Virus record (IMG/VR): IMGVR_UViG_3300028833_000003
DNA length: 64,000 nt
DNA from: a virus
Reading direction: 5' to 3' (one strand)
In this document: positions 30,010-63,650 of the stretch, piece after piece
Layout of the letters: each line of letters begins with the position of its first letter
Numbering within the stretch: the stretch's first letter is position 1
Program-made: the position numbers and the translations under genes
The notes under the pieces: generated by a model
The model's input: only the letters and a program-made list of their open reading frames with translations
Databases searched by the model: none
What the model was told of the DNA's origin: nothing

Positions 30010-30011
30010 AA

Positions 30012-47906: not shown

Positions 47907-47985
47907 ATTGTCATATCTCCTTATTACGAATTACGGTAACGATTAAATTCAAGGGGTCGCATATAGCAGTGTGCAGCGATCGCAC

Positions 47986-48062: not shown

Positions 48063-48081
48063 ATGTTCAATAGCTAACTGC

Positions 48082-48528: not shown

Positions 48529-48545
48529 CGCGCAATTAGCCTCCC

Positions 48546-48920
48546 TTAGTCTAAATTAACATATACACCATCATAAGTGCCGATTTTGTTAAATCTTCCA
48601 TCATACATGCTATTATCATTCAATACAAAATATTGCTGCGCTCGTTCATCACTCGCATCAACTATTTTGCGCAAAGTCTCACTAATCTCAATTGTATCTT
48701 GCGCTTTCATCCAAGGTATCAAATATATAGGCAGCTTTTTATAAGTCCCAATGTAAAATATCGACCCACTATAACGAAACTCAGTTGGTACTTCCTTATT
48801 ACTCTCATAGTACAAATTCGGTGTGTCTTCGACAGTCTCAAACTCAATCTTTTCCTTCAATATATATAAATACTTACGCTTATTTTCAGTTGTAACAGCG
48901 TAAGTTAATTCCATCATCAT
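48546..48920 (-). CDS. hypothetical protein (124 aa)
   Basis: Uninterrupted ORF, ends TAA 48546, 18 nt before the next gene's start. Confidence 0.6.
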   Translation of the reverse strand: MMMELTYAVTTENKRKYLYILKEKIEFETVEDTPNLYYESNKEVPTEFRYSGSIFYIGTYKKLPIYLIPWMKAQDTIEISETLRKIVDASDERAQQYFVLNDNSMYDGRFNKIGTYDGVYVNLD

Positions 48921-48986
48921 ACTTAAATCACTAGCCTTTTTCTATCTTTCATATATATTATACCAAAAATTTTTAAAAAAATCAAT

Positions 48987-49091
48987 TTTTTGAAATCATT
49001 TTTTGAAATGCTCCTTGGGCTTACGTGCCAATTTTTGAAATGAAATTTTGAAACCCCTACTCGGCCCCATTTTGAAATCATTTTTTGAAAT
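48987..49091 (+). repeat. six copies of TTTTGAAA(T/C)
   Basis: At 48987, 49000, 49033, 49046, 49070, 49083 in AT-rich non-coding DNA. Confidence 0.7.
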
Positions 49092-49103
49092 GTATCCACC
49101 CCA

Positions 49104-49138
49104 GGGTATAATTCATCACAAAGTGATGAATTATACCC
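49104..49138. repeat. perfect 16-bp inverted repeat
   Basis: GGGTATAATTCATCAC-AAA-GTGATGAATTATACCC. Confidence 0.85.
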
Positions 49139-49175
49139 CTTATTTAGATTTTTTATTTCGCTATTATTTAGATAT

Positions 49176-49243
49176 TGGTAGATGTTTTACCCAAGTATGG
49201 TAGATTTTTTACCCATAAGTATGGTAGATTTTTTACCCAATCG
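49176..49243 (+). repeat. three tandem ~23-bp iterons GGTAGAT(N)TTTTACCCA(N)AGTAT, with a fourth copy at 49887-49915
   Basis: Units start at 49176, 49199, 49222; the related copy TTTTTTTACCCAAGTATGGTAGAT lies upstream of the 49233..49838 gene, so the gene is bracketed. Confidence 0.75.
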
Positions 49244-49838
49244 GCATTTTAGTCTACATATAATGCTCAGACCAATTTAACAAACGATAACGCGGTGCTT
49301 TTCCATCGAAAAAATTTTCAAATGAAATCAAACCATTATTCTATAACACATCAAGAGCATTATGAATGGCCTATCTAGCCCGCGGATTACCCCCTAATTT
49401 TACACCCAAATGTTCTGCTATTTCTTCCTATGTAAATACATAACCAGGTTTATATTTCCAACGTTGCCCTAAATAAATATATGTTTTAATAACTGCTTCT
49501 TTAACTGTATCAGTTAAAAACTAAACAGTAGCCAAAGGTAATAATAAATAAATTTCTTCTACATTCGGCATAATATATCTATTATCTTCTTCAATTAAAT
49601 AACCAATTTCCAACAAATAATTTAAATGAACACGCAACGTCTTTGCACTTTTTATTCCAATTTTTTTACATATTGCAGCCTATGTCGGTAAATCACTCTT
49701 CAAAACAATAGTGACCCCATCTTCTGGATACGACATAGACTATAAATAAGCATATAATTCAGCATCAATGCGTGGGTCTTTCAAGAACGTAATCTCCTTT
49801 GTTAAATTAGTGTCAGCTGGAAAGCGTTTTTGAACCAT
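49233..49838 (-). CDS. winged-helix/HTH DNA-binding protein, candidate iteron-binding replication initiator or regulator (201 aa), six TAG sense codons
   Basis: ATG 49838 after GGAGGTG; six in-frame TAG, no TAA/TGA until TAA 49233; ...VFT(TAG)EEIAEHLGVKLGGNPRAR(TAG)AIHNALDVL(TAG)NNGLISF is HTH-like; invisible in the ORF track. Confidence 0.6.
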
Positions 49839-49965
49839 ACTTGTTTTCACCTCCTTCATAATCTACTGAAAGAGAAATAAGTAAAAATAACTTTTTTTAC
49901 CCAAGTATGGTAGATATTTTTCCCAAAAATTTTACCCATATATAATATAAAAACGGAGTGAATAA

Positions 49966-50196
49966 TCACTCCGCATCAGTATCGTTTGCAATAGTTACAT
50001 ATTTAGGCGCGCGAGGTGGTCTCTCAGCCAAAATTGTATTCAAATCCTTTTCAAACTTAGGATTGTTGGCAAACACCCAGCAAAGAAACTCCGGCTTACT
50101 AGGATTTGGCGTAGTAGCAACCGGTAAATTACCCATTTCAATCAACTTAGTCGCGATGCGGCGTGTGTAAATAATCTTATTAACATTCTCAGCCAT
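49966..50196 (-). CDS. small hypothetical protein (76 aa)
   Basis: ATG 50196 8 nt after GGAGG (ORF-track start 50211 overlaps the RBS); followed by hairpin GCGGAGTGATTATTCACTCCGT plus T-run. Confidence 0.65.
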   Translation of the reverse strand: MAENVNKIIYTRRIATKLIEMGNLPVATTPNPSKPEFLCWVFANNPKFEKDLNTILAERPPRAPKYVTIANDTDAE

Positions 50197-50273
50197 TTTA
50201 AATTCCTCCATTATGCGTCTGGGCGCACTTCGTTAATGTATTTGAAAGTTTTTTTGTCTCACTTTCTACATAT

Positions 50274-50539: not shown

Positions 50540-50605
50540 AACTTGATTTTTTAATAAAAATATTATATAATATATATATAAGATAAAGAAAGGGTTGGTG
50601 GCAAA

Positions 50606-51361
50606 ATGGTAGCAAAGTCTTATCAGAACAAAGAAATCGTCGGTGAGCCCTACACTGTGATGCTTGACAAACGTGGCGCCGTCCAGTATGTAAAGATTAA
50701 GACGGGCCGCACCAATCCGGATGGCTCTCCCGTTATCAAAGAAGTGCGCTGGTATTCCGAAGAGGAATACTATAAAATGTATCCCCAGGAGATGCCGCAA
50801 ATCGTCTTTGATGCTAAGAAGGGCTTTGGCTTCGATAAAGGTTATATTTGGATTTTCGGTGGCGATACTTATAGCGAACTGGAATGGTTCCGCGCATGCC
50901 CTGTAACTCGTTACGCTCGCCATTTCGGTTGGTATGTTGTAAGTACCGATGAGCTGCCCAACGATATTCCCGAAGGCGTTGAACCCATTAAGCTGATGTG
51001 GGAACAGGTGTCGGATGGCAACGACAACATCCTCGATGAAGATAAAATCAAGTCGATTGTGCGTGACATCCTTCATCCTATTGATACGCGCAGCACCTAT
51101 CAGGGCGAAATTGGCGGTAAGATTACTGTAACGGCCAAATGCACGATGTGCCGTGAGGTTTATGGACCGTATGGTATTTCTGTGCTGCACAATTTCGTCG
51201 ATGCTAATGGTAATGTCTATGTCTGGTTCACTCAAAAGAGCCTTGAATCTGGCAAGACCTACACTTTCAGCGCGAAAGTAAAAGACCATAAGGAATATCG
51301 TAACCAGCAGCAGACTATTATCTACTATCTGCGTAATATTAAGGAGGTAGAAAATGCCTAA
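50606..51361 (+). CDS. hypothetical protein (251 aa), C-terminal part possibly OB-fold-like
   Basis: Class II promoter at 50543; uninterrupted GC-richer ORF. Confidence 0.75.
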   Translation: MVAKSYQNKEIVGEPYTVMLDKRGAVQYVKIKTGRTNPDGSPVIKEVRWYSEEEYYKMYPQEMPQIVFDAKKGFGFDKGYIWIFGGDTYSELEWFRACPVTRYARHFGWYVVSTDELPNDIPEGVEPIKLMWEQVSDGNDNILDEDKIKSIVRDILHPIDTRSTYQGEIGGKITVTAKCTMCREVYGPYGISVLHNFVDANGNVYVWFTQKSLESGKTYTFSAKVKDHKEYRNQQQTIIYYLRNIKEVENA

Positions 51362-51704
51362 TTATAACATTACGTCTGAATGTATGAGTGCAAAAGATGC
51401 AGTTGCTCTTTCTAATAAGGAATACCAGCGCCTGCGGGACCTGGTATTCCAGCTTTTGCGTAAAACTTTTAACGATGAAGTGCGCAAGGCCGCAACCACT
51501 GGCCTGCATTGGTTTAGATGGCGCGTCGTAGATAATAATTTGCATGTATCAACAGCCGTCACAGAAGAACTAAGTGATTTTGTGCGGCACCTGCGTGCGC
51601 TAGGATATGCGGCGGATGTAACTACTGGCCATTCTGGTGTAACGAATGGTTATATTTGCGCATGGGGCGAAGATGCTGCTAAATTGATTGAGGAGAATAT
51701 GTAA
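51354..51704 (+). CDS. hypothetical protein (116 aa)
   Basis: AAGGAGGTAG RBS, overlaps the previous stop. Confidence 0.7.
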   Translation: MPNYNITSECMSAKDAVALSNKEYQRLRDLVFQLLRKTFNDEVRKAATTGLHWFRWRVVDNNLHVSTAVTEELSDFVRHLRALGYAADVTTGHSGVTNGYICAWGEDAAKLIEENM

Positions 51705-51907
51705 TGGATGTATTAAAAATGACGGTCGGGCATCTTTCAGAAACTGAAAGTGAAGCTCTTAAAACTGCGGTTGATGTATTAGAAGAAGTCATGGCAACTG
51801 CGCAAGAATATAATTCTATTTATCATGATGCAGAGACAGCCAAAGATGCTATTGAGATGTTCATAATTAAATATGTTCGCAATAGAACGGACGTGTGGTT
51901 CAAATAA
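51704..51907 (+). CDS. hypothetical protein (67 aa)
   Basis: GGAGGAG RBS, TAATG junction. Confidence 0.65.
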   Translation: MDVLKMTVGHLSETESEALKTAVDVLEEVMATAQEYNSIYHDAETAKDAIEMFIIKYVRNRTDVWFK

Positions 51908-52380
51908 TGAAATTTTATACATCATATTTCTATCAAGTTAGGTTTTTTCCACCTAATTTAATTCCTCTATCAACAGCATGTTCAGACCCAAAATGGTTTC
52001 ACGACAATAAAGGTTTAAAATGGCAATTCAAAGATAAGCGCGGCGTGCTAAATGGACTGCGTGCCGAACCGTTTGTGCCCGGCTAGCAGTTATATGGATT
52101 GTGTCGCGGACCTGAATATTGTGAAACAATTAATCCTCAAACGTGTGATTTTTTACGTGCTTATAAAGCACAATTAGATGCGTTATACTATGATAGTATA
52201 ATGTATCGTTTCCAACAGTTGCATGATAAAATATGTCATGCAGAGAACCTTGACAATGTAGATTTTGCTCTTTTGGTCCATGAGGCACCGACAAACCAAT
52301 GTAGTGAAAGAAAAACTCTACAAAATTGGTTTCTTTCACATAACGTGCCAATTAGCGAATGGTCAAAAGATCAAATATAA
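51907..52380 (+). CDS. hypothetical protein (157 aa), one TAG sense codon
   Basis: ATG 51907 (TAATG overlap); ORF-track pieces 51895..52086 and 52099..52380 are in one frame, separated only by TAG 52084. Confidence 0.65.
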
Positions 52381-52405
52381 ATAATTTATTTAAAGGAGAA
52401 AGTGT

Positions 52406-53074
52406 ATGAAGAAGTTTGTAGTTTTCATTATGTCTATTCTCGTCGCGCTGTCAGTAGTAATGTCAGCATCTGCGCTGACGCTATCTGGTGAAGCATTGTG
52501 GGCCATTAGCACCGAACAGCATGTTATGGGCATTATTGACCCGGCTAAGGTAGAGCACTACTTTGGTCCGCAGGAACCTCCTAAGCCCTATGTGCGCGGG
52601 TTCCTTGAAAATGGCCTGGTGCGCGAGAAAGGTTTGCAGGCTTACACTATCAGCGCAAGCGGTCAGCTGGGTGGATTTACTACTCTGAAAACGACTGTTA
52701 CAATTTTCCCTCAGTTTGAGGAAGTCGTTTATGGCCTAGTAACTGATAAGTGCGGATATGAACCCAATAGTGTAACAGATTATATCCTTGCTACTATGTA
52801 TTTTACTGATGAGTATGTCGGTCACGTATTTATTAAGACTAACGTGCCGAAGTTCCATGTTGGTACAATTACTATTACCGATAAAAAGGATACTATTGAA
52901 CTTTATATGGGCGACTTTGATCTTGATGGAAATATGGAACTTGGATTTGCGCCTGGCTGGACTCCTTGTCAGCCCGCACCTAAGAAGTGCTGCGGCAAAT
53001 GGACAGTTAAGTGCATTACTGTAACTCAGATTTGTTATATTAAGCAGTGCTTCCAGAAGACTAAGTGTAAGTAA
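52406..53074 (+). CDS. secreted protein with signal peptide (222 aa)
   Basis: AAAGGAGAAAG RBS; MKKFVVFIMSILVALSVVMSASA then ALTLSG (signal peptidase I type); followed by terminator GGCCGGTGAAAATCCGGCC plus T-run. Confidence 0.75.
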   Translation: MKKFVVFIMSILVALSVVMSASALTLSGEALWAISTEQHVMGIIDPAKVEHYFGPQEPPKPYVRGFLENGLVREKGLQAYTISASGQLGGFTTLKTTVTIFPQFEEVVYGLVTDKCGYEPNSVTDYILATMYFTDEYVGHVFIKTNVPKFHVGTITITDKKDTIELYMGDFDLDGNMELGFAPGWTPCQPAPKKCCGKWTVKCITVTQICYIKQCFQKTKCK

Positions 53075-53192
53075 TTTATTTGGCCGGTGAAAATCCGGCC
53101 TATTTTTTTATGCAAAAATGAATCATCTATTTGAAAATTTTAAAAAAATATTATATAATATATATGTAAGATAAATAAAGGAGATGTGGCAA

Positions 53193-54995
53193 ATGAGCGT
53201 TTATGAAATCTTTAATGCTTATCGTATGCGTTACGCGACTGGTTCTGAAAATTGTGAGTGTTCTCCTGACGAAGTGTCTGAGGAAGTATTGCTGCAACCC
53301 TGGCGCAAAGCTAAGGGCGAATATCTGATGCAGTTGTTCGGGGATCAGCTTATCCTGGAACGTCCTTTCACCTATCGTCGTGGTGAGGACGAACTGCGCA
53401 ATGATATGTCTAATTTCCTTGATCGCAACATTGCCATGTCTTTCCGCAAGATGATGTGGTCTAAGGTTTGTGACCTGCTTGGTATTGAAAGCCGGCAGTG
53501 GTATTGGAATGATGGAGTTCTCTTTGGTGATGTAGAGGACCTTCCCAAAGAGTCTCAGGAGCGCGCTAAGCGTTATAAGGTGGCGCTGGCGCTTGAAAAT
53601 GCGTTCAGCTTTGATTCTCTGATGGAGAACCATATCGGTGTGGATAAGGCAGTCTCTTGCAAACTGGATGATGGTCGGCGTATTTCCATTGGTTTGAATG
53701 AAAAGCCTATGCGCGTTATCGGTAAGTTTGTTAAGCTGTTCCCTGACGATACTGACATGAAGGAACAATTTGATAAGTATTGTGTTATGCACTCTCAGGT
53801 GCTGAACCAGAAGACGCTGAAAGGCACCATCTGTCTGTCTATTCATCCTCTGGACTATGCTACCGCTTCTGACAATGCGAATGGCTGGTCTAGCTGTATG
53901 TCTTGGCAGGAGCAGGGATGCTATCGTATTGGTACTGTCGAAATGATGAATAGTCCTATGGTTATTTGCTGCTATGTCAAGAGCGATAATAACATGCTGG
54001 ATTGGAATTACGCGAATAAGCATTATGTTTGGAATAGCAAAAAGTGGCGCGCTTGGGCTATTCTGGATATTCATCAGTGCCTGATTAATAAGCAGTATCC
54101 TTATGACAATGATGATTTGGCCACTTTCTGCCTGAACTGGATTCGTGAGCTGGCGGCTGAAAAGCTGGGCTGGACTTTTGATGCTCCTAAGCTTATCTAT
54201 GGTGAAAATCCTTCTCATCATGGCGGTCGTGAGATTGATGGCGGTTATACTCTTGTGTATGACATGAATAAAATGTATAACGACATCAACATCAATGGTG
54301 AAGGTAATCTTTGCTGTCTGCGGCATAATTATGCTAAGCTGTGGAAAATGCCTCAGCGCGTTCATATTAACGTGAGTGGCGTAGATCAGTGCATGTGTTG
54401 CGGCAAGGTGTCTAACTGGGACGACCAGACCGAAGGTTCTCTGTTTGGCACTTGCTGCGATGCTGAAAATGGTTGCCATTGCGCTCGGTGCGGTGATTAC
54501 GTCAATGAAGATGACATCTATTATGGTCCTGATGATGTCGCTTATTGCCAGGATTGCTATAATGATATATTCGGTCATTGCGAAATTTGCGACAGTGATG
54601 TTGAGCGCGAATATATGAATGATGTAACTGTTCATATCCCCGAGGATATGATTAAGGAAGGTCTTGAAAAGATTAACGCCATGCCGGAAGTTGATGGATA
54701 TTTCGACCTGAGCGATTGGCAGATTACCGATTATAGCCTGCGCAGCTTCTCTGTGTGCGACCAGTGCTGTAAGGATTATCATTGGAGAATTGTGCATGAC
54801 CCTCGTCTCAATGGTCATCAGTTCTTTGGCGATTTTATTGATACTACGAACAAGCAGATGGATGAAATTGATATTAGCATGTTACTGAGACATTGCGACC
54901 TGCCTGGCACTCATTATAACTTCCGTTTCAACCACTCCACTCGCGAAAAGATGCAGGCTGTGTGGATGGACCTGTGGGATAAATACATGAAGTAA
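53193..54995 (+). CDS. large Cys-rich protein of unknown function (600 aa), paralog of 58174..59511
   Basis: Class II promoter at 53131, AAGGAG RBS, ATG 53193. Shares core SIHPLDY-x8-W-SCM and NSKKWRAW with the paralog, then multiple CxxC pairs. Followed by a terminator hairpin. Confidence 0.8.
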   Translation: MSVYEIFNAYRMRYATGSENCECSPDEVSEEVLLQPWRKAKGEYLMQLFGDQLILERPFTYRRGEDELRNDMSNFLDRNIAMSFRKMMWSKVCDLLGIESRQWYWNDGVLFGDVEDLPKESQERAKRYKVALALENAFSFDSLMENHIGVDKAVSCKLDDGRRISIGLNEKPMRVIGKFVKLFPDDTDMKEQFDKYCVMHSQVLNQKTLKGTICLSIHPLDYATASDNANGWSSCMSWQEQGCYRIGTVEMMNSPMVICCYVKSDNNMLDWNYANKHYVWNSKKWRAWAILDIHQCLINKQYPYDNDDLATFCLNWIRELAAEKLGWTFDAPKLIYGENPSHHGGREIDGGYTLVYDMNKMYNDININGEGNLCCLRHNYAKLWKMPQRVHINVSGVDQCMCCGKVSNWDDQTEGSLFGTCCDAENGCHCARCGDYVNEDDIYYGPDDVAYCQDCYNDIFGHCEICDSDVEREYMNDVTVHIPEDMIKEGLEKINAMPEVDGYFDLSDWQITDYSLRSFSVCDQCCKDYHWRIVHDPRLNGHQFFGDFIDTTNKQMDEIDISMLLRHCDLPGTHYNFRFNHSTREKMQAVWMDLWDKYMK

Positions 54996-55091
54996 TATAA
55001 CTATCCTCACTCTACAACAAGAGTGAGGATTTTTTATTTGAAAATTTTAAAATATTTTGATATAATATATATAGAAAGTGAGGGGTGATGA

Positions 55092-55331
55092 ATGATGTTT
55101 GTAAGTTTTGAAGATGTTTTTAACGCTGAAAAACAAGAGATGTTAGCTAATAAAATTCATGAACGTGCCATTAAGGAGCATTGGTGCTGCACGTGTCGTC
55201 ATTGTAAATGCGAACATGATGGTGATTGGTGCGAATTCCGTAACACTGTTGCTGATGGCCCTTGCTTATTTTATGAACTTGAACCAAGTCATTGGACTAT
55301 ATATATTACAGAAGGAGGCAACGATAAATGA
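55092..55331 (+). CDS. Cys-rich small protein (79 aa)
   Basis: Class II promoter at 55038; HWCCTCRHCKCEHDGDWC. Confidence 0.7.
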   Translation: MMFVSFEDVFNAEKQEMLANKIHERAIKEHWCCTCRHCKCEHDGDWCEFRNTVADGPCLFYELEPSHWTIYITEGGNDK

Positions 55332-55579
55332 AAAGTCAAAGATGGTATGAAGATAATCCTGAACCGTATTATGAAAAATTTAGAGTTATTGACCAAGAGC
55401 TGGCTAATTTACGTATTGAAAATGAATTACTGCGGTATCAAAATATACGGCTGCGTGACCAGCTCTCTGCCTTTCAAGCCAGATATGGCCCATTGACATT
55501 GGATGATGATACCAGTGGTCCGCCCGAAGGACATGAGCGCCACGATACTGGCGTCTGGACGCCTGCTAACAAATGGTAA
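55328..55579 (+). CDS. hypothetical coiled-coil protein (83 aa)
   Basis: GAAGGAGG RBS, ATGA overlap. Confidence 0.65.
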   Translation: MKSQRWYEDNPEPYYEKFRVIDQELANLRIENELLRYQNIRLRDQLSAFQARYGPLTLDDDTSGPPEGHERHDTGVWTPANKW

Positions 55580-55645
55580 GCACAAACTTGAAAATTTTAA
55601 AAAAATTTGATATAATATATATGTAAGATGAAGGGAGGCAATCGA

Positions 55646-55879
55646 GTGCGTGATGTAGATTATGGCATAATCGACAAGGATGAGTTAATGCGATTACTAA
55701 TCGACTTGCAAGAAGGACTAATTGAAGAACGGCGCATGCGTGATAAAATGTGTGAGCTATATGAGCGACAATTAAAAATTCAAGACGCTGAAATTAAACG
55801 GTTGCAATCTGAATTAGCCTTAGCTCATGAAAAAACAAAAACATCTTTTATAAAACGACCGGCTCCCTTGAGAAAATAA
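55646..55879 (+). CDS. hypothetical coiled-coil protein (77 aa)
   Basis: Class II promoter at 55588; GTG 55646 7 nt after GGGAGG (ORF-track ATG 55628 precedes the RBS). Confidence 0.55.
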   Translation: MRDVDYGIIDKDELMRLLIDLQEGLIEERRMRDKMCELYERQLKIQDAEIKRLQSELALAHEKTKTSFIKRPAPLRK

Positions 55880-55952
55880 AAAAAATTTGATATAATATAT
55901 ATGTAAGGTAAGGAAAGAAATCCTACCAAATAAAGAAAGGAAGTAATTCACA

Positions 55953-56342
55953 ATGACGAAGCGCGAAATGTTTGAGAAGGCTATTGCTATCCTGTCCAAC
56001 GACAATGCCAATGACGAAGTTGTTGCTATGATGCAGCATGAGATTGAGATGCTCGATAAGCGTGCGGAGAGTGCGAAGGCTGGTTCCGAGAAGCGGAAGG
56101 CAAAGCGTGCGGAAACTTCTGACACCATCCGGAACTCTGTGTATGATGCCGTAGCCAATGCGGGTGCGCCGGTTGATGTATTCGCGATTGTTGGTGCGAT
56201 GGATAACGCTCTTACTAAGGGCCAGGTAGTTGCTTATCTGACTCAGCTGGTGCGGGATGGTCGTATCACTCGTGATGCCATCAAGTATAAGGATGCTGAT
56301 GGTCATACCAAGAACGGCTCCGTATACTCTGTCGTAGCGTAA
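55953..56342 (+). CDS. paralog family A member 5 (129 aa), diverged
   Basis: Class II-type promoter at 55868; same architecture (helical N-terminus, basic KRKAKRAE linker, winged-helix-like C-terminus ...LTQLVRDGRITRD...). Confidence 0.7.
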   Translation: MTKREMFEKAIAILSNDNANDEVVAMMQHEIEMLDKRAESAKAGSEKRKAKRAETSDTIRNSVYDAVANAGAPVDVFAIVGAMDNALTKGQVVAYLTQLVRDGRITRDAIKYKDADGHTKNGSVYSVVA

Positions 56343-56401
56343 TAAGAGTGTAAGCGATGGGGAGCGATGTGTTGTCGCTCCCCATTTTTAGGAGTGATTT
56401 A

Positions 56402-57220
56402 ATGAAATATATAATAAATAAACAATGTAGTATGCCATATAAACGTAATGATAATTGCGGTGGGATTGAGTATTATTGGCGTGATTTAAAAGATGCGCTG
56501 GAAGATAATGTCAATCTCAATGGCGAAAAAAATATTTATTTAATGTTTCCATCTGATTATGATTTCTCAGATATAGATGAAATCTTAAACACAATGGAAC
56601 GGTTGCCTAATTCTTGGTTTTTGCTGCCTTCAATTGAAGCTATTAATGTTGTAGTAACTGCCGCAAAAGCAAAAGGCATTGAACCTCGGTGCGGTTTCCG
56701 TTATATGATTACAACTTGGAAATTGTTTTTGCGAGCACAGCAAGCTGGCGCCACATATTTCTTATTTGGTGAGCCCCTCACATTTATGATGCGCCGGCTA
56801 CATGAAGTTAAAAAGGATAATTACATTTATTCTATGATACCATGTGCGTGTGATGAATCTCATTATATCAAAGACATTTGTCAATTCTGGGTATTGCCGC
56901 AGCATATGTATCTTTATGAAGGCTTCATAGATTATGCGGTAATTCCTTTTACGACGCTTAATCAAACTCAGACTGTAATTGATAGTTATTGGTCTGATAA
57001 AGATTATGTTTATCCTTTGTATTTGTTAATTTATAATATGGAATCGAAATATAAATTGCCAGCTAATTGGTTCACAGATAAATTTGCAAAGCTGCGTTTG
57101 GATTGTGAGCAAGAGTGTATAGTTGGTAATCCAAGATGTCATTATTGCGAACGAGAGTGCCACTGGTGGGACTTTGTAAGGGAGAATAGAAATGACTTCA
57201 AAATGGTTAAAACTGTATAA
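56402..57220 (+). CDS. hypothetical protein with Cys-rich C-terminus (272 aa)
   Basis: ATG 56402 after AGGAG; C-terminus DCEQECIVGNPRCHYCERECHWW. Confidence 0.7.
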   Translation: MKYIINKQCSMPYKRNDNCGGIEYYWRDLKDALEDNVNLNGEKNIYLMFPSDYDFSDIDEILNTMERLPNSWFLLPSIEAINVVVTAAKAKGIEPRCGFRYMITTWKLFLRAQQAGATYFLFGEPLTFMMRRLHEVKKDNYIYSMIPCACDESHYIKDICQFWVLPQHMYLYEGFIDYAVIPFTTLNQTQTVIDSYWSDKDYVYPLYLLIYNMESKYKLPANWFTDKFAKLRLDCEQECIVGNPRCHYCERECHWWDFVRENRNDFKMVKTV

Positions 57221-58226
57221 AAATCTTTGTGGCATGAATCAAGTTCAAACTCGTCAATTTATGGCGCAGTTTCTACGACATCAAGATTACAAAAATGTCA
57301 CATTGACAAATAACTATGTGTATGCGGAAGGTGATATTCCTATCGCGCTAGTTGCACATAGTGACACTGTGTTTAAAACTTTGCCAAGAGAGATTTTTCA
57401 TGACCAAGAGAAGAATGTCATTTGGAGCCCAGAAGGCATGGGCGCTGATGATAAAGCTGGTATTCTAATGATGATTGCGATTATTAAGAAGTATGATTTA
57501 AAACCGCATATCATTGTTACTGCTAACGAAGAAATTGGATGTCTTGGTGCATCGAGCCTGGTAAAGAAAGTTCCGAATTGTCCGTTTGCTGAATGTAAGT
57601 ATCTCATTCAGTTAGATCGTAGAGGAGCAGATGACTGCGTATTTTATGATTTAGATGATATTGAGTTTGAAAAGTATATAGAGTCATTTGGTTTTAAAAC
57701 TCAATGGGGTAGTTTTAGTGATATTTCTACTATTGCTCCTGCTTGGGGTATTGGTGCGGTAAATCTCTCTGTTGGGTATGAGGATGAACATAGTTATCAA
57801 GAGCGGTTGTATGTAAATTGGTGGCAGGCCACGCTTGAAAAAGTTGTAAAGATGTTAAATGATGCTGGTAATACTTGCCAGTGGGGCTATACTGAACGAG
57901 CCTATTCTTATCATTATAGCGGCTATCCTTATGGTTGCAACGATTGGGAAGATACTTGTGATTGTTGCCATAACCCCACTCCTTATGCAGATATGCTGCC
58001 AGTATATACAAAAGATAATCCTACTTATGGTATGGATATTTGTCCAGACTGCTTTGCAAAAATTTGTTTGGAAATGTCCTGGTGTAGCAAATGTAATAAA
58101 GGCTGGTATGGTTTTGGCCAACAGCCAAAAAATTGGGTGTGCCCAACTTGCGCTGGAAAGGAAGTAAATACCAATGCAGCAACTAAACTCAATAAAAGAC
58201 CTTCAAAAGATACATATAAGTTTTAA
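57192..58226 (+). CDS. clan MH (M20/M28/M42-like) metallopeptidase-fold protein with C-terminal zinc-ribbon tail (344 aa)
   Basis: AAGGGAG RBS; ordered motifs LVAHSDTV, GMGADDKAGILMM, TANEEIGCLGA, LIQLDRRG, GYEDEHS; then CDCCH...CPDC...CSKC...CPTC. Confidence 0.65.
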   Translation: MTSKWLKLYKNLCGMNQVQTRQFMAQFLRHQDYKNVTLTNNYVYAEGDIPIALVAHSDTVFKTLPREIFHDQEKNVIWSPEGMGADDKAGILMMIAIIKKYDLKPHIIVTANEEIGCLGASSLVKKVPNCPFAECKYLIQLDRRGADDCVFYDLDDIEFEKYIESFGFKTQWGSFSDISTIAPAWGIGAVNLSVGYEDEHSYQERLYVNWWQATLEKVVKMLNDAGNTCQWGYTERAYSYHYSGYPYGCNDWEDTCDCCHNPTPYADMLPVYTKDNPTYGMDICPDCFAKICLEMSWCSKCNKGWYGFGQQPKNWVCPTCAGKEVNTNAATKLNKRPSKDTYKF

Positions 58227-59511
58227 TTACGTGTATGACTGGCTGTATGAACAGCGCCACGGCACTGTTCATACAGACCATCTATTTAATACTTGGGTCG
58301 AAGAAAAGAAACGTTTTTATAGCGCTTGGGGAGATAAGTTAATCTGGGAATATCCTAAGCGCGTTAGTTTTGATTTGTCCGAGCGTGAGCGCGAACAGCG
58401 CTTGACTGAGTTTATTGGCCACGTATATGATGATTTGTGCTGCGACCTTGGAAAATTTCTGGAAGATAATAAAAAAGGTATTCTGGAAAATAAAATGGTG
58501 TCTAATCAATTTATAGATATTAATGGTAGGCCGCACACATTCCCAGAGCATCTTAAATTAAGTCGTGCTATTCTACAAATGGCATCAAAAGAAAAACTGT
58601 GTGAGCCATCAGAAGCTGAATATGTGCGGTGCCGCATCGCGGAACTTATTCAAGAGACTAAGATTACAGGAAAACTTTGTTTTTCTGTGCATCCTCTTGA
58701 TTATATTAGTATTAGCGAAAATCAGTCGAACTGGCGCAGCTGTCATGCTCTTGATGGTGAGTTCGCTAGTGGCAATTTATCATATATGCTAGATCCTTAT
58801 ACTGTTGTAGCATATCTTCGCAGTGATAAGCCTGAACGACTGCCGCGCTTCCCAGATGATGTGCCGTGGAATAATAAGAAATGGCGTATGCTGCTTTGTT
58901 TTGACAACATTCATCATATGGTATGGGCTAATCGACAGTATCCTTTTTATAGCAAGAGCGCATTAGATACAATTGGTGAAATTTTAAATGATCATATGCA
59001 TGATTGGAAATTCTTCGATAAAAATTTTGATGTAGCAGATTTATTACATATACCGCGTTTTTGTTCAAATTCTTTTAAGAGTTTTAAAAAGAACACTGCT
59101 AATAGTGATACTTTTAATTTGAATGAAACATGGATGTTTTGGAAAGGCGATATTTGTAAGGTAGAAGAGTTGGTTGGCAACGAATCAGGGAGTTTGAATT
59201 TTAATGATTTAATTGATTCAAGCACTTATGTACCAGACTTTTTAAGTTATGATAGTTATACAGATTTAGATAAATTGCGGAAATATCCTAAGATGCTTTT
59301 AGGCGGGGTACCACATTGTATCTTCTGTGATAACCAACCAATAGCATATACATCAATTCCGCTTTGTCCGGACTGCCTTCAAGAAAGTAAAATCGAGACG
59401 GAGTATATTACATATTGTTCATGTTGCGGAAAGAGGATTCTCTCAGAGGATGCACAATATGATTGCGGCGATCCATACTGCGATGATTGCTATGCGCGGT
59501 TATATAATTGA
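58174..59511 (+). CDS. large Cys-rich protein of unknown function (445 aa), paralog of 53193..54995
   Basis: AAGGAAG RBS 9 nt before ATG 58174 (53-nt overlap with the previous gene); SVHPLDY-x8-W-SCH, NNKKWRML; C-terminal CIFC...CPDC...CSCC...CDDC. Confidence 0.75.
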   Translation: MQQLNSIKDLQKIHISFNYVYDWLYEQRHGTVHTDHLFNTWVEEKKRFYSAWGDKLIWEYPKRVSFDLSEREREQRLTEFIGHVYDDLCCDLGKFLEDNKKGILENKMVSNQFIDINGRPHTFPEHLKLSRAILQMASKEKLCEPSEAEYVRCRIAELIQETKITGKLCFSVHPLDYISISENQSNWRSCHALDGEFASGNLSYMLDPYTVVAYLRSDKPERLPRFPDDVPWNNKKWRMLLCFDNIHHMVWANRQYPFYSKSALDTIGEILNDHMHDWKFFDKNFDVADLLHIPRFCSNSFKSFKKNTANSDTFNLNETWMFWKGDICKVEELVGNESGSLNFNDLIDSSTYVPDFLSYDSYTDLDKLRKYPKMLLGGVPHCIFCDNQPIAYTSIPLCPDCLQESKIETEYITYCSCCGKRILSEDAQYDCGDPYCDDCYARLYN

Positions 59512-59567
59512 TTTTTTTAAAAATATATGATATACTATATATAGAAAATAAGAGGAGGATTTGAGCT

Positions 59568-59852
59568 ATGGCCAAGGGTTCTATTGCTAAGGGTAATCTT
59601 ATTAAACGATTTGCGGACGCCGTGGGCGCCGATTATGTAGGTGAGTATGATAAGAAATGGTATTTTTGGAGCACTGAGAATGGCGAGCGCGTTCAGGTTG
59701 CTGTCTCATTGACATGCCCAAAGACGCCGGTCGGTGAATCTAATGTTAATACTTTTGGTGGAGAGGAAGTAGCGCCAGCTGCTGCACCAGCAACAATGTC
59801 TGAAAGTGAGCAAGCGCAGTTGGATAAGCTCATGGTCGAGTTAGGGCTATGA
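59568..59852 (+). CDS. hypothetical protein (94 aa)
   Basis: Class II promoter at 59508, GAGGAGGA RBS. Confidence 0.7.
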   Translation: MAKGSIAKGNLIKRFADAVGADYVGEYDKKWYFWSTENGERVQVAVSLTCPKTPVGESNVNTFGGEEVAPAAAPATMSESEQAQLDKLMVELGL

Positions 59853-60082
59853 TTATTCAAAGCGAAAAAGAATTTTTAGATTGGCTAAGTGGTGCTTCCA
59901 CAGATGAATAGGATAAAGCAGTTTGTTAGTATTATCAAGATGAAACACTTGTTTCTCTTGCTGATGCTATGTGGGATTTAAATCCTAATGATTTTTGGTG
60001 GTATTTAGATAATGGCGATATAAGAGTATTCACAGTTGAACCTACTAAGGAGGAATTAGATTCGCCATGGCTGAGCCAATAA
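59849..60082 (+). CDS. hypothetical protein (77 aa), two TAG sense codons
   Basis: ATG 59849 overlaps the previous TGA (ATGA); in-frame TAG at 59909 and 59927; TAA 60080; absent from the ORF track. Confidence 0.55.
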
Positions 60083-60606
60083 GAGGAGAAATAAAAATTA
60101 CTGTATCTGAGCCAGCAAGAAAACCATCTCCATTAGAAGCAGGTGAGCCACAACCAGTATGGTTAGGCACAGAAGAAGATAAATTAGCTCCGCTTGATGA
60201 AGATAAATATTATAATACTTCTACAGTGTTAATGCCAGATGGTTCGTATAGACATGTAAGTGTTGCTTATGAGAAATATTTACATGAAGATTTGGTATGG
60301 CAGATAAAATATACTGATTATAATGGTAGAAGCAAACGTTTTAAAGAACAACAAGAGAAGAGAAATATAGAAAATAAGTATTATAAGTTTTGTTTGGGCG
60401 AAGAAGGACAAAAGAAATTTGATGATTTTATAAAAAAATACAGAAATTATGAGAACAAGAGCGGTATGTATCCTCCTGGTGCATATTACGTGTTTATTAT
60501 ACATCCGACATATTTGGGCGATGTTGTGACATGTGAAGTGCGGCAGTCGGATAAATACGGCGACGAGACTATTATTGATAGTTGCGAAGTTTATAATGAA
60601 ATATAA
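60067..60606 (+). CDS. hypothetical protein (179 aa)
   Basis: ATG 60067, AAGGAGG 13 nt upstream; uninterrupted ORF. Confidence 0.7.
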   Translation: MAEPIRGEIKITVSEPARKPSPLEAGEPQPVWLGTEEDKLAPLDEDKYYNTSTVLMPDGSYRHVSVAYEKYLHEDLVWQIKYTDYNGRSKRFKEQQEKRNIENKYYKFCLGEEGQKKFDDFIKKYRNYENKSGMYPPGAYYVFIIHPTYLGDVVTCEVRQSDKYGDETIIDSCEVYNEI

Positions 60607-60672
60607 TCCTTATAGTTGAAAATTTAAAAAAAATTTGATATAATATATATGTAAGATGAAGGGAGGAAGTAA

Positions 60673-60828
60673 ATGATGGATTTTGAAAATGCTAAGCAAC
60701 AGCTGATGGATTGGATTGGTGCGTCACCTTTCTCTTGGAAACTTGCGGTTTTAGCTGAGATAGAGCAAATTCAAACTTGGGATGAATTGCAGCGTATGGC
60801 TCGGCAGTGGGGTGTTACTTTTCAGTGA
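60673..60828 (+). CDS. small hypothetical protein (51 aa, below ORF-track cutoff)
   Basis: Class II promoter at 60616, GGGAGGAAG RBS, ATG 60673, TGA 60826. Confidence 0.55.
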   Translation: MMDFENAKQQLMDWIGASPFSWKLAVLAEIEQIQTWDELQRMARQWGVTFQ

Positions 60829-60906
60829 TACCAAAGGCGGGTAAATAAATTGGGGCCAATATTCCGCCACCCCTGAATATATTTAATGGCAAAGGAGGCA
60901 AAAAGT

Positions 60907-61113
60907 ATGGAAGCTTTGCAAAAGAATAAGATTATATTCACCTATAAGAACAACGATAATGTCTATGCGCATGATATTAATCTGGAATTTTCTATCGGAG
61001 AACCTAAGTTAAGTGAAATTCATTCGATGTGCAAGGATTTTGCACGAGTAATGGGTTTCTCGTCTGAACAGGTTGAAGAGTATTTTGGAGAGGACGTGTG
61101 GGACATTGACTAA
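60907..61113 (+). CDS. hypothetical protein (68 aa)
   Basis: ATG 60907 8 nt after AAGGAGG (ORF-track start 60886 precedes the RBS). Confidence 0.6.
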   Translation: MEALQKNKIIFTYKNNDNVYAHDINLEFSIGEPKLSEIHSMCKDFARVMGFSSEQVEEYFGEDVWDID

Positions 61114-61258
61114 ATTGTTGCGGCTGGACCTGGATATAAATCAGTTGATGCAGAAGTTGCAGGATGGCGATTGCTCTGAATCTGAGCTGAATTTTCTTAA
61201 GAACCTGTATCATGATTTGGACGAACTCTTTAAAGACCTCAAAAACTTGAAAAATTAA
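61073..61258 (+). CDS. possible small coiled-coil protein (start uncertain)
   Basis: Overlapping ORF with no clear RBS; ends in the UP region of the next promoter. Confidence 0.3.
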   Translation: MKSILERTCGTLTKLLRLDLDINQLMQKLQDGDCSESELNFLKNLYHDLDELFKDLKNLKN

Positions 61259-61289
61259 AAAATTTTTGATATAATATATATGTAAGGTT

Positions 61290-61458
61290 GAGAGAGAAAT
61301 CAATCAATCCTGGATGACAAGAGATTACCACCTACGCTGTGCATAGTGTAGGATGGAGTGTGAAGTCGCCCACGGTAATGGGGTCTGGGTAAAGAAATGG
61401 AGCGCCAGATAGTAGGAGTTGATCGCCCTATAAGACTCACTAAGTCATCTGCTTTAAT
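61290..61458 (+). ncRNA. structured non-coding leader between class II promoter (61247) and tRNA-Thr
   Basis: No ORF; nested pairings ATTACC(61334)...GGTAAT(61385) enclosing CCTAC...GTAGG; GC-richer than surroundings. Confidence 0.35.
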
Positions 61459-61531
61459 GCCGGTATAGCTCAGTAGGTAGAGCGTTTCCTTGGTAAGGAA
61501 AAGGTCCCCAGTTCAAATCTGGGTACCGGCT
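61459..61531 (+). tRNA. tRNA-Thr (anticodon GGT), CCA encoded (to 61534)
   Basis: Cloverleaf by hand: GCCGGTA/TACCGGC acceptor, GCTC/GAGC D stem, TTTCC-TTGGTAA-GGAAA, CCCAG-TTCAAAT-CTGGG. Confidence 0.9.
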
Positions 61532-61534
61532 CCA

Positions 61535-61730
61535 TTACGCGCTGCTCGCGCCGTTTAAGAGGTGGCAAGGAACCCAGTCGCCAGAGCAAAACATGGGCAA
61601 GCCCCACGAAACTGAGGCCGTAGAGCCGAGCACGTGAATCGCGATAAGTCGTGCGAAGGGAGTACTGGGATACAGGGCTGAGGTCACTCGCGAAGGTGGC
61701 GAAACCTTAACCATACGTGCGATTTTATAT
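61535..61730 (+). ncRNA. GC-rich non-coding spacer, probably structured RNA
   Basis: No ORF; several local stems (e.g. GGTGGC...GTCGCC, TCGC-GAAGGTG-GCGA); co-transcribed with tRNAs. Confidence 0.3.
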
Positions 61731-61885
61731 GGGAAGTGATTGACACATCAGGGTAGTGTCCGCTGTGATAAATCACCGACTCCGGGCAAACAGGAGCTAA
61801 TGCGTAAGGGCAATAGAGCATTTAATTGCACGCGCCGAAGTGGATCCGCACATCCACTGGGGTTCAAATCCCCCACTTTCCACCA
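61731..61885 (+). ncRNA. 155-nt tRNA-like RNA: acceptor stem with G3:U70 and A73-CCA, T-arm, but five internal hairpins instead of D and anticodon arms
   Basis: GGGAAGT pairs with ACTTTCC (G-T at the third pair), then A and CCA. GGGG-TTCAAAT-CCCC T-arm. Internal hairpins at 61742-61760, 61765-61776, 61780-61796, 61802-61833, 61840-61857. Confidence 0.45.
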
Positions 61886-61888
61886 TAT

Positions 61889-61961
61889 ACCCCTATAGCT
61901 CAACTGGCAGAGCATCTGACTCTTAATCAGAGGGTTCAGGGTTCAAGTCCCTGTGGGGGTA
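61889..61961 (+). tRNA. tRNA-Lys (anticodon CTT), CCA encoded
   Basis: ACCCCTA/TGGGGGT acceptor, TCTGA-CTCTTAA-TCAGA, CAGGG-TTCAAGT-CCCTG. Confidence 0.9.
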
Positions 61962-62044
61962 CCAGTTCGCCTTTGGCGATGTATTCATCTGAACAAAAGC
62001 GATGATTAAACTGATGTGTGGTTGGCTGACCTCAAAGCTATTAT

Positions 62045-62117
62045 GCCGTTATGGCGCAATAGGTAGCGCGAGTCTTTCGTAAAGACTAGGTTCTGAGTTC
62101 AAGTCTCAGTAACGGCC
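62045..62117 (+). tRNA. tRNA-Thr (anticodon CGT), CCA encoded
   Basis: GCCGTTA/TAACGGC acceptor, AGTCT-TTCGTAA-AGACT, CTGAG-TTCAAGT-CTCAG. Confidence 0.9.
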
Positions 62118-62124
62118 CCATTAT

Positions 62125-62197
62125 GCCGCGTTAGCTCAGTTGGGAGAGCATTTGCCTTACAAGCAAGGGGTCGGCGGTTCGAGCCCGTCACGCGGTA
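62125..62197 (+). tRNA. tRNA-Val (anticodon TAC), CCA encoded
   Basis: GCCGCGT/ACGCGGT acceptor (G1-U72), GCTC/GAGC D stem, TTTGC-CTTACAA-GCAAG, GGCGG-TTCGAGC-CCGTC. Confidence 0.85.
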
Positions 62198-62201
62198 CCA
62201 T

Positions 62202-62272
62202 AGGCGATTGATGTAACGGTAACATACCGGACTCTGACTCCGTTGTTCAAGGTTCGAATCCTTGATCGCCTG
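62202..62272 (+). tRNA. tRNA-Gln (anticodon CTG), CCA encoded
   Basis: AGGCGAT/ATCGCCT acceptor, CGGA-CTCTGAC-TCCG anticodon arm, CAAGG-TTCGAAT-CCTTG; the anticodon is CTG, not CTA. Confidence 0.85.
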
Positions 62273-62278
62273 CCATAT

Positions 62279-62352
62279 CGGAACTTAACTCAGTCGGTTA
62301 GAGTTCTGGTCTTATAAACCAGCGGTCCTGGGTTCGAGTCCCAGAGTTCCGA
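62279..62352 (+). tRNA. tRNA-Ile (anticodon TAT), CCA encoded
   Basis: CGGAACT/AGTTCCG acceptor, CTGGT-CTTATAA-ACCAG, CTGGG-TTCGAGT-CCCAG. Confidence 0.85.
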
Positions 62353-62381
62353 CCATACAAAATTCAATAGGAGATGATGTT

Positions 62382-62789
62382 GTGTATCAGAATGGTCAGC
62401 GTCTTAATAGACATGCGCGGAAGCGTCGGCACATTGATAATTTGAAGCGTCGATCTACTCCTTATGAGTTTAGTAGCTATGAAAGTTTTGTTGAGTATGA
62501 ACGTTATTGGGATGCATTCCGTGATGGTATGTTCGCGGCAATGTATGGTGATTATTATCCTCGTAGAACTCCTACTGGTCGTCCTTGGTATGAACGCTAT
62601 TGGGAGGCTTATACAGGATATGTCTCTCCTGGTTGGAAAAAGAATCTGAAAACGCAGGCGCACCGCGATGAGCGGCGTTACTGGCGTGAGCACCTTGGCG
62701 ATGTCATGAAAATGGAAGACATCGAAGATGAAGAAACTCCGCATGAGCGGCGTGGTCGTCGGCATAGTGACCCTTGGCACTGGGATTAA
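62382..62789 (+). CDS. Arg/Tyr/Trp-rich hypothetical protein (135 aa)
   Basis: GTG 62382 after AGGAG; uninterrupted ORF between the tRNA cluster and the next class II promoter. Confidence 0.6.
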   Translation: MYQNGQRLNRHARKRRHIDNLKRRSTPYEFSSYESFVEYERYWDAFRDGMFAAMYGDYYPRRTPTGRPWYERYWEAYTGYVSPGWKKNLKTQAHRDERRYWREHLGDVMKMEDIEDEETPHERRGRRHSDPWHWD

Positions 62790-62856
62790 CTTCCTTGAAA
62801 ATTTACAAAAAATATTATATAATATATATGTAAGATAAAGAAAGGGGATGCGCTCA

Positions 62857-63048
62857 ATGAAGTGGGATTGGTGTGATGAGTATAGCACTGGCGTTGATAA
62901 TTATCATGGCCAGATGGATTCTTTCGTATGTGATCTAACCGCAGAAGATATGTATGCGTATGATTATGCAATGCACGATACTTGGCAGGATGTTGAGCGT
63001 GAGTGGGCTGAGGAACTTGGCGTTGAGTTGGAAGTTTATGAAGATTAA
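62857..63048 (+). CDS. acidic hypothetical protein (63 aa)
   Basis: Class II promoter at 62795; ATG 62857 after AAAGGGGA. Confidence 0.6.
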   Translation: MKWDWCDEYSTGVDNYHGQMDSFVCDLTAEDMYAYDYAMHDTWQDVEREWAEELGVELEVYED

Positions 63049-63300
63049 ATCCCTGACCGCGAACTTGAAAAATTAAAAAAAATTTGATATAATATATAAG
63101 TAAGGTTAAGAAAAAAAGTAAAAGAAAAAAATGCTGGAAAACCTCACAACCTTGACAAAATAAAAAAAATATGATATAATAATTAAGGAGAAGGAAAACT
63201 CCATAAACCCCACAAACTACGACAATGTGGTTAAAAAGTCGAAACTGGGTCCCGCGGCCAGGATAAAGACACGTGGGGTAGATTGGTGAGAACGTAGTGT

Positions 63301-63317
63301 AGGGGTTCGAATCCCCT
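63301..63317 (+). other. orphan tRNA-type T-arm without a recognisable cloverleaf
   Basis: AGGGG-TTCGAAT-CCCCT; I could not pair a 7-bp acceptor stem or find D/anticodon arms in the flanking 90 nt; no CCA. Confidence 0.4.
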
Positions 63318-63413
63318 TGCGGTGGCTCGAAGTAACAAGTTGGTCACTTGTGCTCGCCGCACGGATATAGGCGATACCGCGTTTGGCAAGATCACCGCTT
63401 GCATCACTTTTAT

Positions 63414-63486
63414 GACCTGTTCGTCTAGTGGTTTAGGACGCGGCCCTCTCAAGGCTGGGACATAGGTTCGAATCCTGTACAGGCCA
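63414..63486 (+). tRNA. tRNA-Glu (anticodon CTC), CCA encoded
   Basis: GACCTGT/ACAGGCC acceptor (A2-C71 mismatch), Glu-type D arm TCGTCTAGTGGTTTAGGAC, CGGCC-CTCTCAA-GGCTG, ATAGG-TTCGAAT-CCTGT. Confidence 0.8.
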
Positions 63487-63496
63487 CCACGTATAA

Positions 63497-63568
63497 TGCG
63501 GCGAGGGCAAACGGTAAGCCACCTGGCTCATAACCAGAAGATAGTGGGTTCAACTCCCACCGCCGCTA
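63497..63568 (+). tRNA. tRNA with CAT anticodon (elongator Met or Ile2), CCA encoded
   Basis: TGCGGCG/CGCCGCT acceptor (U1-U72 mismatch), CTGG-CTCATAA-CCAG, GTGGG-TTCAACT-CCCAC; lacks the three G-C pairs of initiators. Confidence 0.7.
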
Positions 63569-63650
63569 CCAGGACTGGCACTGTCCGAAATAAGTGCTGT
63601 GGGGAACGCCAGCGCACATCTGGTGAGGGTGAAAAGGTAGAAGGCATTGT

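Follow-up and report, generated by a model that had tools for sequence, protein, structure and literature searches.

What do two large paralogous phage proteins of no recognised family do when they are encoded beside a peptidase and share with it a cysteine-rich, zinc-finger-like tail? The question is raised by positions 53,193 to 59,511 of a 64,000-nucleotide stretch of viral DNA (IMG/VR record IMGVR_UViG_3300028833_000003; the whole stretch is referred to below as the window). Here the original prediction, made from sequence alone, had seen two large paralogs (A and B), a hydrolase-fold protein and several other cysteine-rich products as parts of one functional system and not as random ORFans. 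That view holds up, as A, B, the peptidase and a fourth protein, p272, stand in a fixed-order block in essentially all of 98 loci. We suggest, with a probability of only about 30%, that this block encodes an early exopeptidase complex, assembled through zinc fingers and serving host takeover or counter-defence.

Paralog A (53193..54995, plus strand, 600 aa) carries the shared core at approximately 53700..54149, a cysteine-rich multi-zinc-finger part at approximately 54381..54770 and, after it, a C-terminal region specific to A; its start at 53193 is preferred, lying 9 nt after GGAG, and the database copy is likewise 600 aa long. Paralog B (58174..59511, plus strand, 445 aa) has its core at approximately 58552..58977 and two zinc fingers at approximately 59317..59490, with cysteines C382/385, C398/401, C415/418 and C436/439. 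The coordinates and frames first given for these genes were correct, and so was the claim of a common core: the proteins align by BLASTP at 31% identity over 106 residues (E=1e-14), and a hidden Markov model (HMM) of the core detects each of them at approximately E=3e-56 and no other protein of the window. The core motifs quoted at that time are present and invariant in 38 members of the A and B families, but the region of homology is wider than they had suggested, comprising ~340 residues and reaching the N-terminal helical part (W41, K45, K128). In the form common to A and B the motifs read S-x-H-P-L-D, W-x-S-C and K-K-W-R. Twenty-nine columns of the 38-sequence alignment are invariant across both families, including (in B numbering) S171, H173, P174, L175, D176, W187, S189, C190, K235-K236-W237-R238, N344-D345 and seven tail cysteines. 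With three paralogs from Enterococcus phages added, 12 residues stay invariant (S171, P174, D176, W187, C190, G195, G200, K235, R238, P257, N344 and D345), and this conservation of the core from gut phages to Enterococcus phages, D176, C190, K235 and R238 included, looks enzyme-like.

The peptidase gene (57192..58226, plus strand, 344 aa) encodes a PepT-like clan MH di-zinc domain and a C-terminal tail with four conserved CxxC pairs. The hydrolase fold proposed for this protein was confirmed as one of M20/M28 type with all metal ligands present. Its Pfam score exceeds the cut-off for M28 (23.8 against 21.3 bits) and falls below it for M20 (19.5 against 24.6) and M42 (20.9 against 23.2), as does that for the NCBIfam PepT-like model (26 against 274 bits). 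In its catalytic domain it is a homologue of the Peptidase T/M20B tripeptidases (PDB 3rza and 3gb0), whose H-x-D, G-A-D-D, E-E, D and E-H motifs are all found; aligned to these structures, the ligands H56, D58, D86, E113, E114, D142 and H200 follow in canonical order, and the metal and catalytic residues are at least 90% conserved across 61 family members. The protein is apparently an active exopeptidase of the PepT/M20-M28 type. Unlike Peptidase T, however, it has lost the lid/dimerisation domain of ~130 residues: 3rza and 3gb0 align only to residues 34–132 and 171–224, the two halves of the catalytic domain, and the step from residue 132 to 171, a 38-residue linker, corresponds to chain residues 181 to 318/343. 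The architecture is M28-like and lacks the lid of M20 proper. The phage protein further differs in its added cysteine-rich tail and in belonging to a phage-specific branch represented by phrog_34186 (2e-52) and phrog_4191 (3e-27).

We compared 80 IMG/VR loci around homologues of B, which are 27–42% identical to it, and 18 loci on contigs of metagenome-assembled genomes (MAGs) from GTDB. The dominant gene order, [p251]-A-p129-p272-peptidase-B-p94, is seen in at least 52 of the 80 IMG/VR loci, and the exceptions are mostly loci that end at a contig edge. By HMM, p272 is present in all 80 (in a six-frame pass; the first pass placed it directly upstream of the peptidase in 77), p94 in 77, with the same number placing it downstream of B, the peptidase and p129 in 73 each, and a second core protein in 68. 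All full-length loci among the 18 from MAGs have this order; one divergent MAG locus contains A, p129, p272, the peptidase and p94 and lacks B. A and the peptidase are jointly absent from one sub-lineage (L072, L074, L078, L080, L081 and L082). The co-occurrence proposed as a check is thus borne out in relatives, and the block also takes in p129 and p94, which had not been listed. It extends in altered form to the Enterococcus phages EF1, EF5, H1 and VRE9, in which three core paralogs are arranged around the same peptidase. In H1 this enzyme is 39% identical to that of the window (E=4e-57) and carries a zinc ribbon, and the order is a core protein of 623 aa (multi-CxxC), a small zinc ribbon, a collagen-like protein, a small winged-helix-like protein, a core protein of 399 aa, the peptidase and a core protein of 335 aa (zinc ribbon).

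Within the window, the peptidase gene shares 29 nt with p272 and 53 nt with B; such overlaps, which relatives show too, suggest coupled translation. The "class II promoter" by which the genes had been grouped is real as a repeat: a 40-nt element, TTGAAA-N17-TATAAT-ATATATGTAAG, occurs in 10 copies, all on the plus strand between 50.5 and 63.1 kb, where 0.27 would be expected by chance. It precedes p251, A, s79, s83b, p129 and p94. The plus-strand copy before p129 (55868..55907) probably serves a p129-p272-peptidase-B unit, and p94 has a promoter-like site of its own (59508..59543, plus strand). A is monocistronic, with its own copy of the repeat (53131..53170, plus strand) and terminator-like hairpins on either side (53082..53100 and 55003..55030). 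None of the block genes contains TAG, as against the TAG-recoded late genes of the window, which fits expression before recoding takes effect. By these signs the block appears to be an early-region module behind strong sigma-A-like promoters. As a separate observation, the conservation of the repeat (TTGAAAATTTTAAAAAAATTTGATATAATATATATGTAAG; 50565..63100, plus strand, e.g. 55588..55627) goes well beyond the two hexamers, suggesting recognition by more than the host sigma factor.

The core domain, which the original prediction did not recognise, likewise had no match in Pfam, NCBIfam, PADLOC or PDB sequences, whether single sequences, 54 members or profiles were searched, and only the zinc fingers gave hits. 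An AlphaFold2 model of B built from a 54-sequence alignment reached a predicted local distance difference test score (pLDDT) of 89.6 and a predicted template-modelling score of 0.85, the sole low-confidence segment being residues 188–196, the invariant R-S-C-H-A-L-D-G-E loop. Foldseek left the core of this model unmatched in the PDB (best E=0.33), returning zinc-finger fragments only; as modelled, the core fold is absent from the PDB at Foldseek sensitivity. Among predicted viral structures the matches of B were all uncharacterised phage proteins, namely the Enterococcus phage paralogs (E=9e-15 and 1e-9), a protein of an uncultured phage and a pair from Dickeya phage JA29. Over the core, phrog_18912 is matched by A (3.8e-9) and by B (3.1e-12), and phrog_29713 by B (3.8e-4). 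These families, of which the Enterococcus paralogs are the founding members (H1 proteins at 1e-175 or better), are catalogued only, their function listed as "unknown". In an exhaustive profile search the core family comprised 6,561 clusters at 50% identity with E≤0.001, the weakest of which may rest on the zinc finger alone, and 2,558 with E≤1e-30. It occurs, as far as seen, only in phage contexts; none of the cluster members bears a name, and literature searches returned no paper on these genes. The PADLOC defence models gave no match to A, B or p272 and only a chance-level match of DrmB to the peptidase tail (E=0.05). Resemblances of the core noted by eye to E2 (H-P-N...C), YkuD (H...S-x-G-C), RluA (H-R-L-D), kinases (H-x-D-x4-N) and AEP (S-x-H) were dropped, as fold or spacing did not agree.

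The tails are better understood. B has 19 cysteines and four CxxC pairs, all conserved, A has 30 cysteines with five strict CxxC and ~6 cysteine pairs kept in its family, and the peptidase has 17 cysteines. The expectation of 4–8 CxxC pairs after the core was slightly high (four in B, five to six in A). When each protein was shuffled, 0.5–1% of the shuffled versions of A, B and the peptidase reached the observed CxxC count. The tails of A and B find their best match in LIM domains (CRP1 with the family profile, E=2.9e-8; CRP1/CRP2 range 3e-8 to 1e-6), and like these they comprise two consecutive Cys4 treble-clef-type fingers. The linker between the fingers is two residues long in LIM domains and 13 in B (C401 to C415; eight conserved cysteines in all), and the Pfam LIM model matches 2 of 54 family members at approximately E=1e-3. 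Because of this difference in spacing we regard the tails as LIM-like double zinc fingers and not as members of the LIM family. That all products of the promoter class end in zinc-ribbon tails was too strong a claim, p129, p94, s83a and s83b having no cysteine or one.

Among the remaining members of the block, p272 (56402..57220, plus strand, starting after AGGAG) is a beta/alpha protein with a W-I-R-P-E-D motif and a C-terminal Cys4 set, C235, C239, C246 and C249. It contains one CxxC, a count reached by 34% of shuffles and hence not significant, but the four cysteines are invariant in the family in the pattern C-x3-C-x6-C-x2-C. The family evolves fast (15–24% identity among relatives), which accounts for only two matches in the homologue search. 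Designed TIM barrels are matched by its profile (E=1e-4). From a shallow alignment AlphaFold gave a poor model (pLDDT 45) that shows five beta/alpha units in residues 21–134 and is credible only in its N-terminal half; the top Foldseek matches of this pLDDT-45 model are all TIM barrels, at E=0.026 or worse. p272 is thus possibly TIM-barrel-like. A degenerate core paralog was rejected as its origin (hhalign probability 0.1%), and a likeness to the EndoIII Fe-S loop, noted by eye, was dropped since fold or spacing did not agree. The product of p129 (55953..56342, plus strand) has a Lys-rich helical N-terminal half and a predicted C-terminal winged helix-turn-helix; its family profile matches the archaeal Lrp/AsnC-type helix-turn-helix of PDB 7fby (E=6.7e-4), 9w4v and, more weakly, Z-alpha domains, and it has no match in Pfam. 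The best conserved member is p94 (59568..59852, plus strand), at 55–60% identity where A and B show ~35%; in it a variable linker joins an N-terminal MAKGSIAK... domain to a C-terminal helix that is conserved, and it has no match in PDB, Pfam or PHROG. In relatives, a formate/nitrite transporter gene is inserted on the opposite strand between p129 and p272, and a gene for FolD (methylenetetrahydrofolate dehydrogenase/cyclohydrolase) lies a few kb upstream of the module; these one-carbon metabolism genes are found at 12276..12863 and 5000..5818 of locus L002 and at 7232..7783 of L004.

The peptidase family recurs in other phages. In ~293 Autographiviridae records (Drulisvirus/KP34-like, Bucovirus, Maculvirus VP93/KF1 and Kantovirus) a phrog_4191 peptidase directly follows a protein of 557–713 aa (phrog_6980/13313), the two genes overlapping at start and stop and lying just upstream of primase and helicase (L090 3486..6756; L111 2919..5653; L112 2955..5674; L113 2448..5482; L115 1945..4768). 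In this gp10-gp11-type pair of KP34-like, VP93-like and Kantovirus phages, the peptidase is homologous to that of the window (hhalign probability 99.3%, E=1e-20), and the partner ends in the same C-x2-C...[ED]D...C-x2-C finger as the window proteins and has a G-x-S-S-C-M motif resembling the G-W-S-S-C-M of A. The model of B gives weak fold matches to two of the partners (E=0.019 and 0.047). The full-length partner profile matches the core at E=6e-5, and at E=0.23 once the zinc finger is removed (reversed control, E=0.61), which leaves homology to the core of A and B unproven. The podophage pair differs further in that its peptidase has no zinc tail, there is one partner instead of two paralogs, and p272, p129 and p94 are absent. 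A large protein with this type of finger is, at any rate, a recurrent companion of the peptidase. In Bacillus phage FADO (L110 13106..15473), the gene following the peptidase homologue looks DUF262/ParB-like by its sequence motif, and a few kb on there are genes for phosphoribosyl pyrophosphate synthetase and nicotinamide phosphoribosyltransferase, a nicotinamide adenine dinucleotide salvage pair of the kind linked to counter-defence; these surroundings suggest an accessory, anti-defence neighbourhood for the peptidase.

We propose that the centre of the module would be the di-zinc PepT/M20-M28-type exopeptidase, deprived of its lid/dimerisation domain, and that A and B would dock on or beside it by means of their double zinc fingers, as may the TIM-like Cys4 protein p272. 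The paralogs would then take over the role of the lost lid, either in substrate selection or in a second catalytic step, which the invariant Asp/Cys/Lys/Arg cluster around the flexible W-x-S-C loop could provide. Soon after injection, such a complex might trim or process N-termini, or targets that are small peptides or amide-linked, inside the infected cell, and so serve host takeover or counter-defence. Support for it comes from the fixed gene order, the overlapping frames, the H1 paralogs grouped around the peptidase and the joint loss of A and peptidase; from the conserved metal ligands in a lidless enzyme, the 12 invariant core residues and the W-R-S-C-H loop being the only low-confidence segment of the model; and from the podophage pair of peptidase and finger protein, together with the location of the block in an early-type region behind ten promoter copies and free of TAG.

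Two known systems offer comparisons. In plant DA1, a LIM-peptidase protein, zinc fingers accompany a metallopeptidase as they do in the block, but that peptidase is a zincin (HEXXH) and not of clan MH, and fingers and peptidase form one polypeptide. In the LysW/LysK amino-group carrier system zinc-ribbon modules operate with an M20-family hydrolase that releases the product. The likeness, an analogy only, lies in this combination and in the long acidic tail at the end of H1_5. The differences are that no ATP-grasp ligase, kinase or reductase partners were found, that there is no sequence similarity to LysW, and that LysW/LysK sits in a biosynthetic operon and the block in an early phage region.

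Several points weigh against an exopeptidase complex. The sub-lineage without A and peptidase retains B, p272, p129 and p94, so that B is not strictly dependent on the peptidase. Conversely, the peptidase occurs without an adjoining core protein in Thermus phage P23-45, Lactococcus phage P087 and Bacillus phages Tsamsa and FADO, no core protein being detectable among its neighbours there. The conservation of the core fits an independent enzyme equally well as a specificity subunit, and nucleic-acid binding would account equally well for the zinc ribbons and the winged-helix protein. Within one phage lineage, genes may keep their order through common ancestry and not through a joint function. 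Finally, the physical complex, the enzymatic activity of the core, the substrate and the role in counter-defence are all points that we infer.

The nucleic-acid explanation, which we think unlikely, holds that the module modifies phage DNA or attacks host nucleic acid. The core would be a DNA- or RNA-directed enzyme using the invariant Asp, Cys, Lys and Arg residues, the fingers and p129 would bind the target, p272 would be a metal-dependent barrel enzyme and the "peptidase" an amidohydrolase acting on a base or nucleotide adduct. This agrees with the winged helix of p129 and the winged-helix-like gene H1_4 that precedes the Enterococcus module, with the common use of zinc ribbons in nucleic-acid binding, with the many non-peptide amidohydrolases in the M20 family, with the podophage pair directly upstream of primase and helicase, and with the folate and formate genes in or beside the block in relatives. 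However, no nucleic-acid enzyme family was matched in Pfam, NCBIfam, PHROGs or PDB, the fold search returned no nuclease, methyltransferase, glycosylase or transferase, no genes of a modification pathway were noticed in the window, and the fingers most resemble LIM domains, which are protein-protein modules.

It is also rather improbable that the genes form no system at all, being separate early accessory proteins whose adjacency was inherited and whose cysteine tails are zinc knuckles of a generic, stabilising sort; each of the two paralogs, for example, might inhibit a different host protein alone. In favour of independence, A has a promoter and terminators apart from the p129-B unit, the peptidase stands alone in other phages, some variants keep the other genes without A and peptidase, the block tolerates variable insertions (s79, s83a and s83b here, the formate transporter in relatives), and zinc ribbons are frequent in this phage, as in s66 and the sigma-like gene. 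Mere inheritance, on the other hand, agrees poorly with an order kept at only 22–40% sequence identity and into Enterococcus phages, with overlapping reading frames, and with the pairing of the peptidase with a protein of the same finger type in unrelated podophages. A housekeeping set of primase or helicase accessory factors or phage transcription regulators is very improbable: the analogous Autographiviridae pair immediately upstream of primase and helicase, the winged-helix protein in the block and the zinc-binding domains often present in primases and loaders would suit it, but A and B match no Toprim, AEP, DnaB, DnaC or sigma/anti-sigma family in any library (Pfam, PHROGs, NCBIfam and PDB sequences and folds), the block lies among small early genes and not replication genes, and the core is not universal in the lineage, since B has no tblastn match in phage phAss-1.

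Upstream of A, p251 (50606..51361, plus strand, promoter motif at 50565) matches phrog_2319 and phrog_3628 ("unknown function") and precedes A in 55 of the 80 viral loci by HMM. Between A and p129 lie s79, s83a and s83b (55092..55331, 55328..55579 and 55628..55879, plus strand), which are insertions specific to the window; in relatives the place after A is taken by p129 itself or by other variable genes. The small cysteine-rich proteins s79 and s66 (46057..46257) had been counted as members of the system, and we dismiss both: s79 has no phmmer match in the 80 related loci, and s66 is a generic Lar-like zinc ribbon 7–10 kb from the block. Each has two CxxC pairs, a count that for s79 was reached by 8% of shuffles and is not significant.

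Some other frames surround these genes. An open frame of 555 aa antisense to A (53151..54818, minus strand) shows neither homologues nor signals and most probably arises, as a shadow ORF, from the codon composition of A. The 222-aa product of 52406..53074 (plus strand), which has a signal-peptide-like N-terminus and a basic, cysteine-rich C-terminus (CCGKWTVKCITVTQICYIKQCFQKTKCK), may be a secreted or membrane protein of the early region. The gene at 51907..52380 (plus strand), called as a single 157-aa product, has one in-frame TAG (52084..52086), an unusual recoded codon amid otherwise standard-code early genes. The minus-strand genes at 47379..50211 form an island between plus-strand early blocks, with a low GC content (0.33) and a GC skew that is strongly negative; several frames of this island require TAG read-through, e.g. 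49233..49859 with 7 TAG.

The capsid protein of the window is 50% identical to that of phAss-1, 36% to those of Enterococcus phages EF1, EF5, H1 and VRE9 and 26% to those of SPbeta-like phages. Megablast of the region against GenBank phages gave no match. The window is part of a phage contig of ~169 kb, an identical copy of A being present on one of 168,974 bp. A crAss-like origin was rejected, as the genes for capsid, portal and sigma factor find their matches in phAss-1 and the EF1-type Enterococcus siphophages. According to its published description (PMC10607447), phAss-1 is a siphophage that recodes TAG, has a giant tape measure and is predicted to infect Clostridia. Related MAG-binned contigs are mostly from Lachnospiraceae, Clostridia, Bacillota, and both this assignment and the TTGAAA-N17-TATAAT promoter type point to a Bacillota host; the module belongs to a large clade of Bacillota-infecting siphophages. 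The minus strand of the first 31 kb holds late genes that are coherent only with TAG read as an amino acid, and in these structural genes (1..31100) TAG as sense joins fragments. Read-through restores, among others, the portal (25116..26717), the terminase (27092..28843) and a frame of 4,559 aa with 103 in-frame TAG, probably the giant tape measure (1383..15062), all on the minus strand; the capsid gene (21919..23013, minus strand) has no TAG. A sigma-factor-like gene (30012..31097, minus strand; phrog_5767, E=2e-47), which has six in-frame TAG and encodes a zinc ribbon at the C-terminus, is probably the means by which the phage redirects host RNA polymerase to late transcription. From 31 to 64 kb the genes on the plus strand are small, of early type and in the standard code, and eight tRNA genes are clustered there (61459..63571: Thr, Lys, Thr, Val, Gln-CUG, Ile-UAU, Glu and Met). 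A tRNA with the anticodon CUA is not among them, and the window therefore lacks the suppressor that the TAG-recoded genes need.

The core family is large and strongly conserved, without an assigned fold or function, and its association with a recognisable enzyme offers an entry point for experiments of a kind rare among phage "dark matter". Cultured phages carrying core and peptidase include the Enterococcus phages EF1, EF5, H1 and VRE9_1-4, and those with peptidase and zinc-finger partner include KP34-like Klebsiella phages, VP93-like Vibrio phages and Shigella phage Buco. A bolder reading, which we consider doubtful, is that the core is an undescribed enzyme fold that forms with the lidless peptidase a two-component early machine for takeover or counter-defence, shared by podophages and siphophages. 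If so, this machine, in diverged form, would span from 43-kb T7-like podophages of Proteobacteria (KP34, VP93) to 140–200-kb siphophages of Bacillota, and would represent a widespread takeover or counter-defence class that processes a host protein or peptide signal. Should the module be a takeover or counter-defence device, it would add an exopeptidase-based, zinc-finger-assembled class of mechanism, with a bearing on the phages of gut Bacillota and on therapeutic Klebsiella and Enterococcus phages.

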